DNA from: Clostridia bacterium
GTDB taxonomy: Bacteria; Bacillota; Peptococcia; DRI-13; DTU073
Length of the DNA stretch: 64,000 nt
Reading direction: 5' to 3'
NCBI GenBank assembly: GCA_028684195.1
Contig: JAQUGH010000001.1
Location: forward strand, 19,771 to 83,770
The position numbers were made by a program, and so were the translations under genes. The notes under the pieces were generated by a model, which ran no database searches, had not been told where the DNA came from, and was given only the letters and a program-made list of their open reading frames with translations. Numbering within the stretch: the first letter of the stretch is position 1; each line of letters opens with the position of its first letter. Of this stretch, positions 562 to 54,268 are shown piece after piece.

Positions 562-2724
562 CTAAGGTCCTAGTTGTTGCACCGAATTTTCAAGTTTAGG
601 TCCCATAAAAACCATCAGCTCACCGCCTACCTGAACGCGTTCCCCAGGTTCAGGTTCCTGTCTGATAACAATGCCACTTCCTCGTATTTTGAAATTTAAA
701 TTAAGCATTTTGGTCAGTTCCTTAACCTCGCCTACATTTTTTCCTGTTAAATCCGGAATTACAATAAGCTCCGGTTCACCATCTCCTGCTGGTACACTGG
801 TATAAAGCACAACCTTGCTTCCTTCCAATACCTTCGTATTAGCTAGAGGCAACTGCATCTTTACAGTTGTACCATCCCCCAAGACATCAACTTTTATTTT
901 ATTATTAGCGAGCGTATTTACTGCATCCTTAATATTACTTCCCACTAAGTTAGGTAAATATAAACTTTCCTTATTATTACCAGAAATCTTATCAGGTTCC
1001 ACCTGGGCGGGGACTTGCAAATATCGTAAAGAATCACGAATAATATTTCTAAAAGCAGGTGCTGCCACTGTCCCTCCGTAATATATCCCTTCAGGAGTAT
1101 CTACAACAACTAGACAAACTAACTTAGGATCATTTACTGGGGCTACTCCTAGAAAAGACCCCACATACTCAGTTTTTGAGTAACCACCACCAGGAATTAT
1201 TTTCTGAGCCGTCCCTGTTTTCCCCCCAACACGATACCCTTCTACATAAGCATTTTTCCCTGTACCATTACTTACCACTAACTCCAAAATATCCATCACT
1301 TGATGTGCCGTCTCAGGAGCTATTACTTGACGAACAACCTCTGGTTCTACGGTTTTTACTATGTTTCCCTTGTTATCTTGAATTTTCTCAACAATCTGAG
1401 GTTTCATTAATTTCCCATCATTAGCCATTGCTGCACAAGCAGTCACAAGCTGTATAGGCGTCACTGCATTCGCCTGACCTATAGACATAGTCGCTAAATC
1501 AATTTCCTTGCATCTTTTTTTACCTACCAATATTCCTATTGCTTCTCCCGGAAGTTCAATTCCAGTTTTCTTTCCAAATCCAAAACCATACAGGTAACGA
1601 TAAAAAACATCTACTCCTTCACGCAACCCTAAAGTCACAAAAACAGGATTACAAGAATTTTGAACTCCCTCTACAAAAGTTTGGCTGCCATGCCCAGGCG
1701 ATAATTTCCAACATTTTATTTTTTCTTTACCTACTTTAATAAAACCTCCACAATAAAACCTATCATTAAGTTTCACAACACCCTCATCAAGAGCTCCTGA
1801 CATTGTCACTGTTTTAAAGGTGGAACCAGGTTCATAAGCATCTGAAATTAAAAAATTTCTCCACAATGACTGATCATAATTTTGATAATCATTAGAACTA
1901 AAGGTAGGTCTCATGGCCATCGCTAATATCCGCCCTGTTTTAGGATCCATAACTATAGCTCCAGCCTTCTTCGGATTACTTACTTTGACGATTTCATCCA
2001 ATTCACGCTCCACTATGTATTGAATAGTTTCATCAATTGTTAGATAAATACTATTTCCATCCTGTGGTGCTACATATTTTTGTAACGCATCCGGTATTTC
2101 CTGACCTTTAGCATCATATTCAACCATAATCGTCCCTGATATACCTCGCAAAACCTTATCATAACTTATTTCTACCCCATTTAAGCCTTGATTATCTATA
2201 CCAGAAAATCCAAGCACATTAGCAAGAAGCTTATCTTTAGGATAAAAACGTTCCGGTTCCTCCACAAAACTAATTCCCGGCAATTCCAAAGACTTAAGCT
2301 TTTGTGCCTTTTCTTCAGGAACATGCCTTTGAATCCAAACGAAAGCCTGACTCTTCGTTATCTTGTTAAGTACATCGTTCTCATCAATATCTAACGCTCC
2401 TGCTATCTTATTGGCAATATCCTTTTCCTTCTTTGATTTTTTAACCTGAGCAGGTATAGCATAAAAAGAGTCTGTACTAATACTAATTGCCAACGATCTT
2501 CCCTTAGTATCATAAATAATTCCACGTTTCGCTTTTACTTCTACATTACGGAACCGAACCGCAAATGCCTTTTGTCGTAATTCTTCTCCCATAACAAACT
2601 GTACCCAAAACAACCGAATAACTAAAGCAATAAGCATTATCACAATGGTAAGAAAGATATATCCTATTTGTTTTTTCATTTTTATAGAATTAGACAATCT
2701 TCCAACCTCAATTCTTACTGACAT
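562..2724 (-). CDS. Class B penicillin-binding protein (FtsI/SpoVD/PBP2B type) with C-terminal PASTA repeats
   Basis: 720 aa with an N-terminal TM helix. Transpeptidase motifs are GSTFK (SxxK), NSCN (SxN) and KTGT. Two PASTA-like repeats sit at the C-terminus. Position in the dcw cluster fits. Confidence 0.9.
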   Translation of the reverse strand: MSVRIEVGRLSNSIKMKKQIGYIFLTIVIMLIALVIRLFWVQFVMGEELRQKAFAVRFRNVEVKAKRGIIYDTKGRSLAISISTDSFYAIPAQVKKSKKEKDIANKIAGALDIDENDVLNKITKSQAFVWIQRHVPEEKAQKLKSLELPGISFVEEPERFYPKDKLLANVLGFSGIDNQGLNGVEISYDKVLRGISGTIMVEYDAKGQEIPDALQKYVAPQDGNSIYLTIDETIQYIVERELDEIVKVSNPKKAGAIVMDPKTGRILAMAMRPTFSSNDYQNYDQSLWRNFLISDAYEPGSTFKTVTMSGALDEGVVKLNDRFYCGGFIKVGKEKIKCWKLSPGHGSQTFVEGVQNSCNPVFVTLGLREGVDVFYRYLYGFGFGKKTGIELPGEAIGILVGKKRCKEIDLATMSIGQANAVTPIQLVTACAAMANDGKLMKPQIVEKIQDNKGNIVKTVEPEVVRQVIAPETAHQVMDILELVVSNGTGKNAYVEGYRVGGKTGTAQKIIPGGGYSKTEYVGSFLGVAPVNDPKLVCLVVVDTPEGIYYGGTVAAPAFRNIIRDSLRYLQVPAQVEPDKISGNNKESLYLPNLVGSNIKDAVNTLANNKIKVDVLGDGTTVKMQLPLANTKVLEGSKVVLYTSVPAGDGEPELIVIPDLTGKNVGEVKELTKMLNLNFKIRGSGIVIRQEPEPGERVQVGGELMVFMGPKLENSVQQLGP

Positions 2725-9405: not shown

Positions 9406-10479
9406 ATGGAACACCTGAACATACTTAAAGAAATGACTATGGCTCACGGTCCATCGGGTTTTGAAGGAAATATAAGAGAGCTTATAAAAGATTACCTAAC
9501 TGGAAAAGCGGAATTTACTCAAGATAATTTAGGTAGTTTGATCTGCAAAAAAGAAGGAACAAGTTCATTTCCCAAAATTATGATACCCGGTCATATGGAC
9601 GAAGTCGGTTTTATGGTAAGTGCAATTACTAAGAATGGCTTTATTAAGTTCATCCCCCTTGGAGGATGGCGAGATCAAGTTCTTCTTGCTCAAAAGGTTA
9701 TTATTAAAACCAGAAAAGGTGATAGAACTGGTATAATCGGTTCTGTACCTCCTCATCTTCTTTCAGCTAAAGATAAAAACACAATAGTTGAAAAAAAAGC
9801 AATGTTTATTGACGTTGGTGCTAAAGATCGAGAAGAAGCACAAGAAATAATGGGTATTCTACCCGGAGATCCTATCGTTCCCGATAGCACTTTCCACATT
9901 CTTGGAGAAAAGATGATTATGGCAAAAGCTATAGATAATAGAGTTGGTTGTTGCCTTTTTATGAACTTGATTAAGGAACTTTGGAATACAACTCATCCTA
10001 ATACGATATATGGTGTTGGTACGGTTCAAGAAGAGGTCGGTTTGCGGGGAGCTACCACGTCCGCTAACGTTATAAAACCAGATATATGCTTTACCGTAGA
10101 TGTTACCATTGCCACTGATATGCCTGGTCTGGAAAAAGAAGATTCAGAGGTTAAATTAGGTAAGGGTCCTGTTCTAACACTAGCAGATTCTTCTGTAATC
10201 GGAAACAGAAATCTTCGGAATTTCGTCATTGATACAGCAAAGGAAAATCGTATTCCACTTCAATACAATACCATGATGGGTGGAGGTACAGATGGAGGCG
10301 CCATTCATAAATCCGGTTTTGGTGTACCAACTGTAGTCATCAGCATACCTACTCGTTATATTCACAGCCATTACAGCATTTTTCACTATGATGATTATGA
10401 TAATTGTCTGGAATTACTTATTAAGCTTGTGAAGGGGTTAGATGAAAAAACAGCAAATAATATTTTGAATAGTAATTGA
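9406..10479 (+). CDS. M42 family metallo-aminopeptidase (glutamyl aminopeptidase / CelM-like)
   Basis: 357 aa. The N-terminus LKEMTMAHGPSGFEGNIRE, plus GHMDEVGF and VQEEVGLRGA, are M42 hallmarks. Confidence 0.85.
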   Translation: MEHLNILKEMTMAHGPSGFEGNIRELIKDYLTGKAEFTQDNLGSLICKKEGTSSFPKIMIPGHMDEVGFMVSAITKNGFIKFIPLGGWRDQVLLAQKVIIKTRKGDRTGIIGSVPPHLLSAKDKNTIVEKKAMFIDVGAKDREEAQEIMGILPGDPIVPDSTFHILGEKMIMAKAIDNRVGCCLFMNLIKELWNTTHPNTIYGVGTVQEEVGLRGATTSANVIKPDICFTVDVTIATDMPGLEKEDSEVKLGKGPVLTLADSSVIGNRNLRNFVIDTAKENRIPLQYNTMMGGGTDGGAIHKSGFGVPTVVISIPTRYIHSHYSIFHYDDYDNCLELLIKLVKGLDEKTANNILNSN

Positions 10480-10493
10480 CAACAACTATCTAC

Positions 10494-10522
10494 TTGCATT
10501 AAAATGTTTTTAATTCTACAAT
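10494..10522 (+). promoter_or_regulatory. Sigma-A type promoter of the metF leader
   Basis: TTGCAT (10494-10499), a 17-nt spacer, then TACAAT (10517-10522). Confidence 0.5.
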
Positions 10523-10536
10523 AGCATATGAGAGTG

Positions 10537-10598
10537 TTCTTATCATGAGTGGTGGGAATTGTGTCATTTCCTGCAGATTTTATTCTGAGAGATAAGAA
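10537..10598 (+). promoter_or_regulatory. Riboswitch-like leader element: truncated S-box (SAM-I)-like aptamer
   Basis: The P1 helix pairs UUCUUAUC (10537-44) with GAUAAGAA (10591-98). The 5' segment AUGAGUGGUGG and the 3' segment AUUUCCUGCAGA..UCUGAGAGAUAAG resemble the S-box core. The central ~40 nt (distal P2 plus P3) is replaced by a short hairpin, GGGAAU-UGUGUC-AUUUCC. Confidence 0.5.
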
Positions 10599-10607
10599 GC
10601 AGATAGT

Positions 10608-10640
10608 AAAAAGCTGTTTCTCTTTAGAAACAGCTTTTTT
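10608..10640 (+). terminator. Intrinsic terminator of the metF leader (expression platform)
   Basis: Hairpin GCUGUUUCU-CUUU-AGAAACAGC flanked by an A-run and a U-run (ends UUUUUU at 10640). AGAAGCAG (10595-10602) can alternatively pair with CUGUUUCU (10614-10621) as an antiterminator. Confidence 0.75.
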
Positions 10641-10661
10641 ATAAATATAAAATTAGGAGGT

Positions 10662-11555
10662 ATGTCCGTGTTTATCCATAATATTTTTGCTACCAAAAAA
10701 CGAGCCGTTCTGTCCTTTGAAATATTTCCACCTAAAAAAGATAGCCCTATTGACACCATCTTTTCTACAATAGATGGTTTGAAAGACCTGAATCCCGATT
10801 TTATCAGCGTTACATATGGTGCCGGTGGAAGTAGCAAAGGGAAAACCATTGAAATTGCTTCCCTAATTAAGCATAAATATGGTATTGAATCCTTAGCACA
10901 CTTAACCTGTATCTCGTCAACGAAAGATGAAGTAGAAGATATCCTGACCACGCTTAAAAATAATAAAATCGAAAATGTTTTAGCTCTAAGGGGAGACCTT
11001 CCGCAAGATAAAAACTTTAAATTTCCTACGCCACTCCATTACAACTACGCTAGTGACTTGGTTTTTCAAATTCAACAAAAAGGTGATTTTAGTATTGGCG
11101 GCGCTTGTTATCCTGAGGGTCATATTGAATCTGACTGTATTGAAACTGATGTGTATTATATAAAAAGAAAAGTTGAGGCAGGAGTAGACTTCTTGATTAC
11201 CCAATTGTTTTTCGATAATGAACATTTATATGACTACATAAATAAAATCCGGCAAGCTGGAATCAATATTCCAATAACAGCAGGCATCATGCCTATGCTA
11301 AGCAAAAAACAAATCGAGCGTTGTCTGTCCTTCAGTAAGGCTGCACTTCCTAAGAAGTTTACAAGAATATTAGAAAAATACGGTCACAATAGTGCTGCTC
11401 TCCAAGAAGCAGGAATAATATACGCTACGGATCAAATCATTGATCTTCTCTCTTGGGGAGTGGATGGAATCCACTTATATAGTATGAATCGTCCGGAGGT
11501 AACTAAAAAAATAGTTGAAAATATCTCTGATTTCCGTAATCTAATTCAGGAATAA
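10662..11555 (+). CDS. metF: 5,10-methylenetetrahydrofolate reductase
   Basis: 297 aa with SFEIFPPK..., HLTCI, ALRGD and FITQLFFD motifs. AGGAGG ends at 10660, so GTG at 10668 is an equally or more likely start. Confidence 0.9.
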   Translation: MSVFIHNIFATKKRAVLSFEIFPPKKDSPIDTIFSTIDGLKDLNPDFISVTYGAGGSSKGKTIEIASLIKHKYGIESLAHLTCISSTKDEVEDILTTLKNNKIENVLALRGDLPQDKNFKFPTPLHYNYASDLVFQIQQKGDFSIGGACYPEGHIESDCIETDVYYIKRKVEAGVDFLITQLFFDNEHLYDYINKIRQAGINIPITAGIMPMLSKKQIERCLSFSKAALPKKFTRILEKYGHNSAALQEAGIIYATDQIIDLLSWGVDGIHLYSMNRPEVTKKIVENISDFRNLIQE

Positions 11556-11572
11556 TTCTCAAGATAAACTTA

Positions 11573-12622
11573 CTACCTAGCCAAAAATAACTTACTCAAT
11601 AATTTCCATTTTGTAAAAATACAACTCGCTACATATGAAAAAACGACTGTGAATAAAAGTCCGGTTAAATAAAGAAAATCATTCGTTGAAAACCCAATCG
11701 CATGCCATAAAGTATTCCATATTCCAAGAAACAAAGGATGTATAAGGTACATCGGGAACGATTGTGTTCCAAAAATATTGAAAAAGCTACTTTGGTTTTC
11801 TACGAAAAAAAGCCAAATGCTAAGGGATGAAAACAAGGCAAACAAATGATATGCACCATAATATACAATCAAACCGACAGGTTCATTCATCCTAAGCTTT
11901 ATATTAATAATGACATAACAAATTACAACCAATAAACTTAAGCTCCACAAATGTACCTTATACTTAAGAAATACTGCTTTTACCTTCTGATAATTTGCAC
12001 CAATCCAACACCCCACGACAAAAACCGAAAGGTAGCTACCCAATAAATTAGCCGGATGTGGGTAAATTTCATAAATCCAAGCTTTATTTAAAATATAAAA
12101 CAACACTTGTAAAAACAAAGTCAGTACAATCATATGTAATGACTTCATTTTTTTTATAAAAGTACAAACTAACGGAATAAATAAGTAAAGCTGAATAACT
12201 ATTAGTAAAAAGTACAGATGATAATACGCTGTCCCATTTACTAATTCCCGTCCAATAAAATTCAATGATAAAGCTGTGCTACCCCTAAAGCATACAGTTT
12301 TAAGTATAAAATAAAAGGTACTCCAAACTAAGTACGGAACTATTACTGTCTTTAATCTTTTTGTGTAAAATTTAGATAATGGAACTTCTTCCTTTGTCTG
12401 TTTCCAAGTTAATACAACACTGCTGATAAAAAGAAATACAGGAACAGCAAACTGTGCAAGGCTATTTATTATATTATAACTAATAAATCTAGTGGTATCT
12501 GAAGGATATGCTATTGTAGCTTCCGCAGTAACATGAATAATAATCACTGCTAAAATAGCCAAACCTCTCATGCTTTCAAATTCCTGTAACTTTTTCAATG
12601 TCTTTTCCTCATCTCTTACCAA
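11573..12622 (-). CDS. Acyltransferase family 3 integral membrane protein
   Basis: 349 aa with about 10 TM helices. The N-terminal RGLAILAVIIIHV motif is typical of acyltransferase_3. Confidence 0.75.
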   Translation of the reverse strand: MVRDEEKTLKKLQEFESMRGLAILAVIIIHVTAEATIAYPSDTTRFISYNIINSLAQFAVPVFLFISSVVLTWKQTKEEVPLSKFYTKRLKTVIVPYLVWSTFYFILKTVCFRGSTALSLNFIGRELVNGTAYYHLYFLLIVIQLYLFIPLVCTFIKKMKSLHMIVLTLFLQVLFYILNKAWIYEIYPHPANLLGSYLSVFVVGCWIGANYQKVKAVFLKYKVHLWSLSLLVVICYVIINIKLRMNEPVGLIVYYGAYHLFALFSSLSIWLFFVENQSSFFNIFGTQSFPMYLIHPLFLGIWNTLWHAIGFSTNDFLYLTGLLFTVVFSYVASCIFTKWKLLSKLFLAR

Positions 12623-18777: not shown

Positions 18778-20085
18778 TCACTTGTCTTTCTTTCTAATAG
18801 ATGGGGGCATCTTTTGTGATATTTCCAACATTCCTTCTGCCATCTCTGTTACTTTCTCTCTTAATTTAAATATGCAATCAACCTCATCTGCTTGTCCCCT
18901 TACAATATCTTCTGCCAAAGCTCGACAAGTAGGTGCACCACACGACCCACAATCTAACCCGGGCAAAAATTTTTCAATCACCTCAAGATTCTCCATTTTC
19001 TGCATAGCAATAGCAATATTATCATCCAGTTTTAAAACTTCAATTGGCTTTATTTTTTCCGTAAACATAAGCTCCTGCCAATCAGGATGCTTCGCTAATT
19101 CTTGCTGCTTGTCCACTTTATTTCGTGCCAACCAATCTATGCGAGCTTTTGCCATAAAAGGATTTTCTACAGTAAGCGGTCCGCCAACACAACCTCCTAC
19201 ACATGACAACGCTTCAATAAAATCTACTTCTTTTAACTTACCCATTACTACTTCTTCCAAAACCTTAGTCACATTTTCAACACCATCAACAGCAAGATAT
19301 CGAAGTCCTGAAATGAATCTGCTTTCTCCACCGCTAATTGCCCATCCCACACCTGCTCCAGAGGATTTTTGCAAATCAGGTGCCTTTTTAATATCTTTTA
19401 TTTTACTTAAAAGTAGTCCATATATTTCGGATATCCCAATGACACCATCAACAGCAGAGTTTTTCATACCAACCGGATTTTTTACCCCTGTTACCTTGGC
19501 AGCACAAGGTGAAATGAAAAATACGCCAACTTTTTCCGAAGGATATCCTGCCTTACTCATCTCTTCCTTAGCTATCTTAGCTGCCGTTTCCATAGGTGAC
19601 TTAATTGGAACTATATTATTTATAAGTTCAGGGAATTTTACCTGAATTAATTTTACTACTGCCGGACAAGCCGAAGAAATAACCGGTCTGGGAAAATCCT
19701 TATTACTAAGAAAATCATTTACTGCACGAGTAACCAGTTCCGCACCCAATGCTACTTCCCATACCTTATAAAACCCCAATTCTAACAAACCTGCAATAAT
19801 ATGATTCACTGTAAATTTAGTTCCAAACTGACTATACAAACTCGGAGCTGGAAGAGCAATCGGATATTCATATCCCTTGATTTTTTCCAAAGGATCAGTT
19901 ATGGCTAATTTTGCATGATATGGACAGATCCTTATACACTCGCCACAATCAATACACCGTTCATCGATTATTTTAGCCTTCCCATCACGAACACGAATAG
20001 CCTCCGTAGGACAATGTTTTATACAATTTGTACAACCCCTGCATAACTCTTCATCAAGAGTAACCGAGTGAAAATATGAATCCAC
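18778..20085 (-). CDS. Sensory-type [FeFe]-hydrogenase-like protein (HydS/HfsB-like, no PAS domain seen)
   Basis: Two ferredoxin motifs are CRGCTNCIKHCP and CIDCGECIRICP. H-cluster-like motifs are SSACPAVV, FISPCAAK and LSCVGGCVGGP. A C-terminal CGSCGAPTCRALAEDI Fe-S motif is also present. Confidence 0.8.
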   Translation of the reverse strand: MDSYFHSVTLDEELCRGCTNCIKHCPTEAIRVRDGKAKIIDERCIDCGECIRICPYHAKLAITDPLEKIKGYEYPIALPAPSLYSQFGTKFTVNHIIAGLLELGFYKVWEVALGAELVTRAVNDFLSNKDFPRPVISSACPAVVKLIQVKFPELINNIVPIKSPMETAAKIAKEEMSKAGYPSEKVGVFFISPCAAKVTGVKNPVGMKNSAVDGVIGISEIYGLLLSKIKDIKKAPDLQKSSGAGVGWAISGGESRFISGLRYLAVDGVENVTKVLEEVVMGKLKEVDFIEALSCVGGCVGGPLTVENPFMAKARIDWLARNKVDKQQELAKHPDWQELMFTEKIKPIEVLKLDDNIAIAMQKMENLEVIEKFLPGLDCGSCGAPTCRALAEDIVRGQADEVDCIFKLREKVTEMAEGMLEISQKMPPSIRKKDK

Positions 20086-27254: not shown

Positions 27255-28895
27255 TTACACCGACATAATGTAAGCAGCATATCCACCACTTAATACATAT
27301 ACATTATATCCTTTTTGTATAAGAACCCTATACGCAAAATAAGCACGTTTCCCAGCACTACTGTATAGCACAATTTTTTTATCTTTATCTAATTCCTGAT
27401 AACGAGTTCTTAACTCATCCTCGGGAATCAGGACTGAGCCTTCAATGGCTCCTGCTTCATTTTCTCCACGTGTACGACAATCCACAACTTGGATATCTTC
27501 ATTTACTCTAATTTCTTTTAAATGAGCTGGGGTAATATGTCTTGCCTCACCCCTAATAATATTAGCTGCAACCATACCCGTAACATTAATAGGATCTTTG
27601 GGTGATGCAAAAGGAGGTGCATAGGCAAGGTCTAAATTTTCAAGATCAAAAACAGTAAGATGTGCAAATATTGCTGTTGCCATTACATCAATTCTCTTAT
27701 CCACACCTTTCCAACTCCACCCAACAATCTGTGCTCCTAAAATCCTTCCCGTATGTTTTTCGGCAATAATTTTAATTATCATTTTTTTAGCGCCAGGATA
27801 ATAAGTAGAATGATTAAATGTTGGTATATACGCTACATAATAATTCATGTTAGAATTTTTTGCCTCTTTTTCTCCAATACCAGTACGAGCTACCGCAAAA
27901 TTTCCCACTTTAAGAATAGATGTACCTAACACACCCTTAAAAAGGAGTTTCCCTCCTGCTGCATTAGCTCCTGCTACCCTTCCCTGCTTACTTGCACTCC
28001 CAGCCAAAGGAATCCTTACAACATCACCAGAAACAAGATGAACAGATTCTACAATATCACCAGCAGCGTAAATATCAGGCTCACTTGTTTGCATTGTTGC
28101 GTCTACCACTACCCCACCTACTGTACCTACCTTTAATCCTGCTTTATGAGCCAATTCTAATTGTGGTCTTACTCCTGCAGACATAATCACCATTTCTGCC
28201 TTTATTGGTGTTCCATCATCCAAGATTACTCCCTCAACTTTTTTCTTGCCCTGAATCGAAATTAAACTCCTACCTAACGCAATTTGTGCCCCTCTTTCTT
28301 TCAGATGTGCTTCCAAAGGAAGAGAAAACTCAGGATCAAAGCTTGTAATTAATTGAGGATTTCTGTCAACAACTGTAGTCTTAATACCTTTTTTTATTAA
28401 TGCTTCAGCTGTTTCCAAGCCAATGAAACCGCCACCTAAAATGACCGCTGATGAAATACCTCCATTTAAGTTCTCTGCAATTGCTTCCACATCATTTACT
28501 GTAAAAACGGTATGAACTCCCTCTAAATCTATCCCTTCAATAGGAAGTTTTACCGGTTTGCCACCTGTTGCAAGAATTAATTTATCATAAGTTTCTTTAA
28601 CAACCCCACTCGGAGATTTCACAGTTACTACTTTAGCCTTATTATCAATATCTATTACTTCATTATTAATTCGCACATCAATATTATAGCGTTTACGAAA
28701 AAGCTCTGGAGCTATTATAAGTAAACTACTTTTTTCAAGAATATCTCCGCCTACATAATACGGTAATCCACAGTTAGCAAATGATACATAATTCCCCTTT
28801 TCAAAAATAATAATTTCTGCATCTTCATTAACTCTACGAGCCTTTGTCGCAGCTGATGCACCCGCTGCTACTCCTCCAACAACAACGATTTTCAA
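27255..28895 (-). CDS. CoA-disulfide reductase / NADH oxidase family flavoprotein with C-terminal rhodanese domain
   Basis: 546 aa. The FAD motif is VVVGGVAAGASAA and the redox Cys sits in SFANCGLPYY. A second dinucleotide fold is ILGGGFIGLE. The C-terminal rhodanese-like segment reads QVVDCRTRGENEAGAIEGSVLIP. Confidence 0.85.
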   Translation of the reverse strand: MKIVVVGGVAAGASAATKARRVNEDAEIIIFEKGNYVSFANCGLPYYVGGDILEKSSLLIIAPELFRKRYNIDVRINNEVIDIDNKAKVVTVKSPSGVVKETYDKLILATGGKPVKLPIEGIDLEGVHTVFTVNDVEAIAENLNGGISSAVILGGGFIGLETAEALIKKGIKTTVVDRNPQLITSFDPEFSLPLEAHLKERGAQIALGRSLISIQGKKKVEGVILDDGTPIKAEMVIMSAGVRPQLELAHKAGLKVGTVGGVVVDATMQTSEPDIYAAGDIVESVHLVSGDVVRIPLAGSASKQGRVAGANAAGGKLLFKGVLGTSILKVGNFAVARTGIGEKEAKNSNMNYYVAYIPTFNHSTYYPGAKKMIIKIIAEKHTGRILGAQIVGWSWKGVDKRIDVMATAIFAHLTVFDLENLDLAYAPPFASPKDPINVTGMVAANIIRGEARHITPAHLKEIRVNEDIQVVDCRTRGENEAGAIEGSVLIPEDELRTRYQELDKDKKIVLYSSAGKRAYFAYRVLIQKGYNVYVLSGGYAAYIMSV

Positions 28896-49548: not shown

Positions 49549-49633
49549 GCGGAAGTGCTGGAATTGGCAGACAGGCACGTTTGAGGGGCGTGTGGCGTAA
49601 GTCGTGCGGGTTCAAGTCCCGCCTTCCGCACCA
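49549..49633 (+). tRNA. tRNA-Leu, anticodon GAG, with encoded CCA
   Basis: Folded by hand. The acceptor stem pairs GCGGAAG with CTTCCGC. The anticodon stem pairs CACGT with GCGTG around the loop TTGAGGG. A long variable arm marks it as class II. The T-arm is GCGGGTTCAAGTCCCGC and the 3' end is CCA. Confidence 0.9.
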
Positions 49634-54225: not shown

Positions 54226-54268
54226 AAAAGAGGGCTTTGCTGTTTATAAACAGCAAAGCCCTCTTTCT
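54226..54268. terminator. Bidirectional intrinsic terminator between nifJ and the fumarase genes
   Basis: A long perfect hairpin, AAGAGGGCUUUGCUGUUU-loop-AAACAGCAAAGCCCUCUU, flanked by A/U runs. Confidence 0.85.

Follow-up and report, generated by a model that had tools for sequence, protein, structure and literature searches.

Upstream of metF, the methylenetetrahydrofolate reductase gene of a Clostridia bacterium (GTDB lineage Bacteria; Bacillota; Peptococcia; DRI-13; DTU073), lies a leader in which an element closely resembling a truncated S-box, the SAM-I class of S-adenosylmethionine (SAM) riboswitch, sits beside a complete terminator/antiterminator switch. The stretch of DNA that was analyzed, referred to here as the window, comprises the 64,000 nucleotides at positions 19,771 to 83,770 of contig JAQUGH010000001.1 (assembly GCA_028684195.1), and coordinates are those of the window unless another locus is named. 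An M42-family aminopeptidase gene (9406-10479) is followed by a 182-nt spacer and then by metF. The metF promoter is of the σ70 type, with TTGACA at 10476-10481, an 18-nt spacer, and TAAAAT at 10500-10505 on the forward strand (11 of 12 matches in a promoter consensus scan), and its -35 hexamer and the peptidase stop codon share bases. After the promoter, the spacer contains, in order, a 62-nt segment (10537-10598), an antiterminator, a terminator hairpin with UUUUUU, and a ribosome-binding site, AGGAGG (10655-10660, forward strand), read from the sequence 7 nt 5' of a GTG codon at 10668.

The metF gene itself (10668-11555, forward strand) encodes 295 amino acids and matches TIGR00676 with 326 bits against a cut-off of 293.7. 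Its start is probably this GTG rather than the ATG at 10662 chosen by the open reading frame (ORF) caller, because a strain of the same species (L026) has ATA at 10662 (position 10664 is A), the spacing from the ribosome-binding site fits, and the proteins of relatives are 294-295 amino acids long. Codon differences between the window and L026 number 13 synonymous and 2 non-synonymous; judged by such comparison, metF is intact and under purifying selection, which would mean that the gene is in use and that the terminator in its leader must be read through.

The SAM-I model of Rfam (RF00162) aligns end to end (model positions 1-108) to 10537-10598 of the forward strand, with 22.9 bits against a gathering score of 44.4, and no Rfam family reaches its gathering score in the metF leader. 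The alignment keeps P1, J1/2, the first residues of P2, J3/4, P4, and J4/1, and it leaves only 3 nt of the 19-nt P2-distal block and 1 nt of the 28-nt P3 block. The match has E = 0.0053 in the 251-nt leader and E = 1.3 over the whole window, and the score by itself is not significant window-wide. What makes the S-box identity convincing is that the element is on the right strand, that it lies between the promoter and terminator of the sole methionine-pathway gene identified nearby, that its P1 3' strand overlaps the antiterminator, and that it aligns block by block to canonical S-boxes. SAM-IV and SAM-I/IV, which belong to the same clan (CL00012), do not reach their gathering scores, and SAM-I is the best clan match listed. 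A sensitive Rfam search of the 251-nt leader listed none of the models for tetrahydrofolate (THF and THF-II), S-adenosylhomocysteine (SAH), SAM/SAH, or SAM-II, -III, -V, and -VI at E≤10, and these other ligand classes were set aside. An earlier note on this DNA, made from the letters alone, had named SAM-I, SAM-IV, SAM-I/IV, THF, and THF-II as families to be considered; SAM-I alone was borne out, at a sub-threshold score. The same note had described the promoter, P1, the consensus blocks, the 62-nt length, the antiterminator, and the terminator, all of which are present, and it had rightly judged that a large internal region is missing, since the full-length model does not give a normal score.

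The remnant, delimited by the RF00162 match and by alignment to six canonical S-boxes, is read on the forward strand. It is enclosed by P1, a perfect 8-bp helix of UUCUUAUC (10537-10544) with GAUAAGAA (10591-10598). Between these strands follow J1/2, AUGAG (10545-10549); a 5' remnant of P2, UGGUGG (10550-10555); the deletion junction, at about 10555/10556; a remnant of the P3 3' strand, UGUGUC (10560-10565); J3/4, AUUUCCUG (10566-10573); the P4 hairpin (10574-10587, with CAGA at 10574-10577 paired to UCUG at 10584-10587); and J4/1, AGA (10588-10590). In terms of consensus blocks, CUUAUCAUGAGUGGUGG at 10539-10555 forms the 5' block, and AUUUCCUGCAG at 10566-10576 forms the 3' block, with the P4 hairpin and then GAGAGAUAAG after it. 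A 17-nt core word occurs a single time in the window without mismatch. No other copy of this word or of any segment of the leader is found in the window, and an origin from a repeat or mobile element was rejected on that ground.

How the element came to be so short is apparent from its alignment by MAFFT with six canonical S-boxes gathered by a genome pattern scan. The difference is a single contiguous gap, of 41 nt relative to the shortest canonical S-box (L013) and of up to 57 nt relative to the others. On either side of it the element reads UUCUUAUCAUGAGUGGUGG and GAAUUGUGUCAUUUCCUGCAG-P4-GAGAGAUAAGAA, where GAAUUGUGUCAUUUCCUGCAG aligns with the canonical AAAAGGUGCCAAAUCCUGCAG. The gap covers AGGGACUGGCCC (P2b and the L2 strand of the pseudoknot), the kink-turn (k-turn) GAUGAA, the P2 3' strand, GGCAACC (the P3 5' strand), and the P3 loop; one canonical counterpart of the 41-nt deleted segment is AGGGACUGGCCCAAUGAAGCCCGGCAACC plus the loop. 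On this alignment, the UGUGUC that the earlier note had taken for the loop of a new 6-bp hairpin is what is left of the P3 3' strand (GGUGCC, with two substitutions). That hairpin (GGGAAU at 10554-10559 with AUUUCC at 10566-10571, forward strand) does not replace P2 and P3; it is assembled from retained P2 5' residues and retained J3/4, and its ensemble probability (p) is ≤0.02 at any nascent stage, so the three-way junction that the note had drawn is not the predicted fold in context.

Apart from the gap, four substitutions fall at positions that are invariant in the eight canonical S-boxes: A10 of J1/2 is U, two changes turn GGUGC into UGUGU, and the second A of J3/4 is U. All four are in the ligand/pseudoknot core, and P1 and P4 are still paired. 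It is thus almost certain that the element is an S-box derivative that arose by deletion.

Measured against the features that define the SAM-I family, the element retains the surroundings and has lost the center. Its genomic context is that of SAM-I, with metF downstream, a terminator at 10608-10640, and an antiterminator at 10595-10621 that overlaps P1. At P1 and J1/2 (UAUC/GAUA and AGAG in the family), the helix is perfect and GAG is present, but the invariant A10 is U, and P1 is predicted at p = 0.02 in context. The four-way junction of P1, P2, P3, and P4 cannot be built, the P2 3' strand and P3 5' strand being absent. The GGGACUGGCCC...GAUGAA segment that carries the k-turn and the L2 partner of J3/4 is deleted, and of the P3 helix with its SAM-hydrogen-bonding internal bulge (GCAACC/GGUGC), the first strand is deleted and the second has become UGUGU and is unpaired. 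Failing the gathering score, the four-way junction, the k-turn/pseudoknot, and the P3 bulge, the metF leader element should not be annotated as a SAM-I riboswitch. In SAM-I, the pocket for SAM is situated where P1 meets P3, and specific hydrogen bonds are made to P3 and J1/2; the L2-J3/4 pseudoknot depends on the k-turn; and removing single functional groups is enough to compromise the fold of the bound state (PMC3064774). From this knowledge, an RNA that has no P3, no pseudoknot, and no k-turn would not bind SAM in the manner of the family, and the remnant is very probably SAM-blind.

The expression platform has survived. The intrinsic terminator (10608-10640, forward strand) pairs AAAAAGCUGUUUCU with AGAAACAGCUUUUU in a hairpin at 10608-10639, in which a 9-bp core (GCUGUUUCU/AGAAACAGC) is extended to 14 bp around a CUUU loop (-16.2 kcal/mol) and runs into UUUUUU at 10635-10640. 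A terminator consensus scan found none and so did not flag it, possibly because the stem, when extended as far as A-U pairs allow, consumes the U run. The antiterminator, also on the forward strand, pairs AGAAGCAG (10595-10602) with CUGUUUCU (10614-10621) in 8 bp across an 11-nt loop (-7.6 kcal/mol) and shares the last 4 nt of the P1 3' strand.

The folding of the nascent transcript was predicted from nearest-neighbor thermodynamics with a start near 10512, an approach that ignores kinetics, pausing, and tertiary contacts. Before the 3' strand of P1 has been transcribed, its 5' strand is sequestered by the orphaned P2 5' strand, GGUGGGAAU, with p = 0.84-0.91; the resulting anti-P1 hairpin (GUUCUUAUCA at 10536-10545 with UGGUGGGAAU at 10550-10559, forward strand; 10 bp including 4 G-U) is part of the minimum free energy (MFE) structure. 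In a transcript ending at 10598, P1 has p = 0.33. Once 10621 is reached, it falls to p = 0.02, the antiterminator has p = 0.87, and states containing P1 are 2.9-3.9 kcal/mol worse than the antiterminator state. In the full-length leader the terminator is dominant (p = 0.93-0.96). The three-way junction comes close to the MFE when the 62-nt RNA is folded in isolation, lying 1.1 kcal/mol above it (-13.2 versus -14.3). The undeleted S-box leader of Crassaminicella profunda served as a control, and at every length tested its MFE structure contained P1, P3, and P4. The deletion is therefore predicted to tip the leader away from the aptamer fold and toward the antiterminator, which points to ligand-independent read-through; on this modeling, antitermination is somewhat favored over termination as the default.

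Taking these observations together, we put the probability at about 70% that the metF leader is a canonical S-box attenuator that lost its function when about 41-57 nt were deleted from its interior in one event, is blind to SAM, and probably lets transcription through constitutively. In this proposal, that event would have removed distal P2, which carries the k-turn and the pseudoknot strand of L2, along with the 3' strand of P2 and the 5' strand and loop of P3, including the P3 residues that bond SAM. It would have left P1, J1/2, the P3 3' strand, J3/4, P4, J4/1, the antiterminator, and the terminator. The orphaned core nucleotides would then have decayed slightly, with mutation of the P3 3' strand since, and the remnant would no longer sense SAM. 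With the stranded P2 5' strand pairing to the P1 5' strand, P1 would rarely form, and its freed 3' strand could pair with the 5' half of the terminator as an antiterminator. RNA polymerase would continue into metF at a rate that is roughly constant and does not depend on ligand, and the outcome would be the same as in related species whose metF has no such leader, namely transcription that is not controlled by SAM.

Other strains of the species carry the same leader. In L026, from an ENA metagenome, and L112, an NCBI metagenome-assembled genome (GCA_028700825.1), it is 100% identical to that of the window; as the truncation is present in three independent assemblies, it is real and not an assembly artifact. 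The single-nucleotide polymorphisms (SNPs) that separate the window from L026 between 7668 and 12616 are very unevenly spread. The 1.4-kb interval 10664-12053, which takes in metF and the beginning of the acyltransferase gene, has 25 of them, and the 3 kb upstream of 10664 has 1; this pattern suggests that a recombination boundary lies exactly where the leader meets metF.

Beyond the species, the next-closest MetF proteins are 68-76% identical and come from six species (L001, L004, L007, L107, L108, and L110). The promoter, TTGACA-N17/18-TAAAAT(G), is common to all six, and synteny is preserved in most. Their leaders are only 37-67 nt from promoter to start and contain no aptamer, no terminator, and no Rfam match. 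A further relative, L114 (MetF 69% identical), likewise has no RNA element before metF. The earlier note had looked to the metF leaders of related genomes for covariation, and in this the comparison fell short: the six species provided no homologues, and the only homologues at hand, in L026 and L112, are identical over the leader, so a covariation test is impossible. A full-length S-box is found farther away, in C. profunda (L113, MetF 62%), where SAM-I scores 93.6 bits at 963-1066 on the forward strand, with a terminator at about 1079-1109, and the two precede an operon of metF, a 227-amino acid ORF, and metH. S-box control of metF therefore exists in the wider group. Of 80 more distant metF loci at 49-55% identity from a metagenome protein scan, none contained the S-box core expression and none of the 14 tested gave an Rfam match; these are too distant to help. 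In a tree of MetF, the window species and seven relatives form a clade with 100% bootstrap.

A separate search was made for further truncated copies, with the pattern TTATCANGAGNGGNGGN{4,26}CCNGCN{8,30}AGATAA, which describes the S-box 5' core, a gap of 4-26 nt to the CCNGC of J3/4, and the P1 3' strand. In a collection of one genome for each of 185,579 species there were 16 matches, none of them truncated like the metF leader; all were chance matches or full-length canonical S-boxes, the latter matching because AGATAA lies within the P3 loop or because the aptamer has no P4. A stricter pattern with TCCTGC gave 0 matches in the metagenome collection, and one relaxed by one base at each end of P1 gave 0 matches in viral contigs. 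The power of these scans is limited, since the P1 sequence was fixed and the source species is absent from the genome and metagenome collections, so that its own leader was not recovered. Recurrence with covariation, which a new class of compact aptamer would need, is not seen: the element is known from one species, in three identical assemblies.

Several observations weigh against the proposal of a disabled attenuator. The neighbor-joining tree nests the window species among its leaderless relatives; a topology in which it is sister to all of them, requiring a single loss of the cassette, is found in 25% of bootstraps, and in the rest it is nested. The outgroup C. profunda has the full S-box, and the tree is compatible both with gain of the leader in the window lineage and with its loss in the relatives. 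Besides the four substitutions, the remaining S-box consensus positions are remarkably intact, which fits a very recent deletion and equally fits continued selection on the remnant. Polymorphism does not help to choose, as the 156-nt leader has 0 strain differences against 0.8-2.8 expected, a figure uninformative on selection. Finally, once the transcript is full length, the terminator is favored over the antiterminator state by 10 kcal/mol, and substantial constitutive termination is possible.

One rival to this proposal is that the aptamer is dead and the module of P1, anti-P1, antiterminator, and terminator has been kept as a ligand-independent attenuator, setting a fixed, reduced level of metF and perhaps also stopping transcripts from the peptidase gene. 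The strength of the terminator (-16.2 kcal/mol) and its dominance of the full-length ensemble (p = 0.93) speak for such a role, as do the retained consensus positions, with P1 and P4 intact save for the four core changes, and the arrangement of the genes, in which the peptidase stop codon overlaps the -35 hexamer and no hairpin stands between the two genes, one being present after the peptidase gene in L004 and L108. Conservation is limited to one species, so selection cannot be shown; the relatives manage without such a module; and its maintenance would be hard to tell from neutral persistence after a recent deletion. We consider this unlikely. Chance resemblance, by which an AT-rich leader with an ordinary terminator would contain S-box-like words by accident, could draw on the E of 1.3 over the window and on a score that is half of the gathering threshold. 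It is close to negligible given the E within the leader (0.0053), the three consensus blocks in the right order and spacing, the perfect P1, correctly oriented in the leader of a methionine-pathway gene and flanked by its promoter and terminator, the overlap of the P1 3' strand with the antiterminator exactly as in S-box leaders, the unique core word, and the single-gap alignment.

More interest would attach to a functional compact riboswitch, in which the 62-nt remnant binds SAM or another ligand (SAH, methionine, or a folate) and thereby stabilizes P1 against the antiterminator. The expression platform is complete and in correct register with P1, the A-U/U-A pairs of P1 and G11 of J1/2, all of which help to form the SAM pocket in SAM-I, are retained, the UGUGUC loop may preserve counterparts of U57 and G58, and the three-way junction folded in isolation exceeds the MFE by only 1.1 kcal/mol; natural SAM aptamers of other kinds can be as short as 45-55 nt. 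Set against this, all elements of the P3 5' strand and the pseudoknot are gone, there are mutations at A10 and in the P3 3' strand, the hairpin is predicted at p≤0.02 and P1 at p = 0.02 once the antiterminator is available, no second example, and hence no covariation, came from the collections searched, the nearest relatives have no leader element, and no other riboswitch family is matched at E≤10. Such a riboswitch is very improbable, and more improbable still is the specific form of it in which a minimal switch built from the wreck of the S-box senses SAM or another metabolite of the methionine or folate cycle and signals through competition between P1 and the antiterminator, perhaps using the P1 pairs, G11, and the U57/G58 equivalents. 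The earlier note had left the choice between a relic and a compact aptamer variant; the relic is supported by the single deletion, the loss of P3 and the pseudoknot, the four core changes, and the occurrence in one species with no second copy, and for the compact aptamer there is no positive evidence.

Set beside known systems, the element most resembles SAM-I (RF00162), for example the C. profunda copy, in having a P1 of the type UUCUUAUC/GAUAAGAA, J1/2 of the form xGAG, P2 5' GGUGG, J3/4 UUCCUGC, P4, and J4/1 GAGAGAU, and in its position between a σ70-type promoter and an intrinsic terminator, with an antiterminator that shares the P1 3' strand and a methionine-pathway gene downstream. It differs in having lost 41-57 nt that comprise the k-turn, the L2 strand, the 3' strand of P2, and the 5' strand and loop of P3, in its score of 22.9 bits, in the four core substitutions, and in a predicted fold that no longer contains P1. 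SAM-IV (RF00634) and SAM-I/IV (RF01725) are related to SAM-I in rearranged form, with peripheral elements (P4 and the arrangement of the pseudoknot) changed or dispensed with. In both, the P1/P3 core that binds the ligand is retained, and conservation with covariation extends over many species, whereas the window element has lost P3 and is a singleton.

S-boxes also tolerate the loss of a whole peripheral helix. In two S-boxes from uncultured Clostridia (L011, 2215-2291, reverse strand; L022, 1947-2011, forward strand), J3/4 (AAUUCCUG and AAAUCCUG, respectively) runs directly into the P1 3' strand and there is no P4. These aptamers keep P2, the pseudoknot, and P3; the window element is the opposite case, with P4 kept and the binding core lost. 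In concept, the nearest precedent is the ghost aptamer of singleton glycine riboswitches, where the part that binds the ligand has been lost and a residual helix persists beside a working expression platform (PMC6944388). It is what is left of one degraded aptamer of a tandem glycine riboswitch, and, as in the metF leader, an aptamer has decayed next to a platform that was retained. The ghost aptamer, however, scaffolds a second, intact aptamer and is conserved at hundreds of loci, whereas the metF leader has no intact aptamer and is found in one species.

If the disabled-attenuator proposal is true, the leader is a cleanly dated snapshot of the death of a riboswitch, with the sensor deleted and the platform left in place, in a species whose sisters have lost the cassette or never had it. 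Such intermediates of riboswitch loss are rarely documented. Their use would lie in the calibration of annotation pipelines, for which sub-threshold "half" matches beside the right gene can be real but non-functional homologues, in understanding how attenuator leaders are gained and lost, and in providing a natural negative control for structure-function work on S-boxes; no new regulatory principle would be opened. A minimal 62-nt riboswitch, if it were true, would be a natural case of one aptamer re-invented from the wreck of another and is the sole alternative of wide interest.

Two further candidates for the control of metF were set aside. A second promoter, TAGAAA-17-TAAAAT (10625-10653, 9 of 12 matches), would start transcription at or inside the ribosome-binding site and is unlikely to drive the gene. 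Attenuation by a leader peptide was rejected from a reading of the sequence, in which the sole upstream ORF, ATG AGA GTG TTC TTA TCA TGA (10528-10548), lacks a ribosome-binding site and, past its start, contains no codon for Met or Cys.

The neighborhood of metF offers several minor observations. No terminator lies between the M42 peptidase gene and the metF promoter in the window (10470-10485), and a hairpin is present 3' of the peptidase gene in L004 (1874-1897) and L108 (about 1340-1365); transcripts running through from the peptidase gene would meet the metF leader terminator. On the 3' side of metF, the window has a gene for an Acyl_transf_3 membrane protein (11573-12622, reverse strand), as does L110, and in L004, L007, and L107 this place is taken by a Com_YlbF-family gene, the locus being rearranged on either side of metF. 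L114, a Bacillota metagenome-assembled genome, has a lysine riboswitch (735-913, reverse strand; 129 bits) in the long spacer before its metF, upstream of a divergent ornithine/diaminopimelate decarboxylase (lysA-like) gene.

Elsewhere in the window, the sole RNA at its Rfam gathering score is a leucine transfer RNA with anticodon GAG (49549-49633, forward strand). A sub-threshold match to the Vibrio antisense RNA AS7 (28708-28876, forward strand; 48.9 bits where the gathering score is 90, E = 3e-6) is antisense to the N-terminal FAD-binding region of a 546-amino acid pyridine-nucleotide-disulfide oxidoreductase/rhodanese-like ORF (27255-28895, reverse strand) and is most likely due to conservation of the protein-coding sequence. 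A near-perfect palindrome of about 20 bp at 54226-54268 (AAAGAGGGCUUUGCUGUUUAU/AUAAACAGCAAAGCCCUCUUU), matched on both strands by several microRNA-precursor models, is probably a bidirectional intrinsic terminator.

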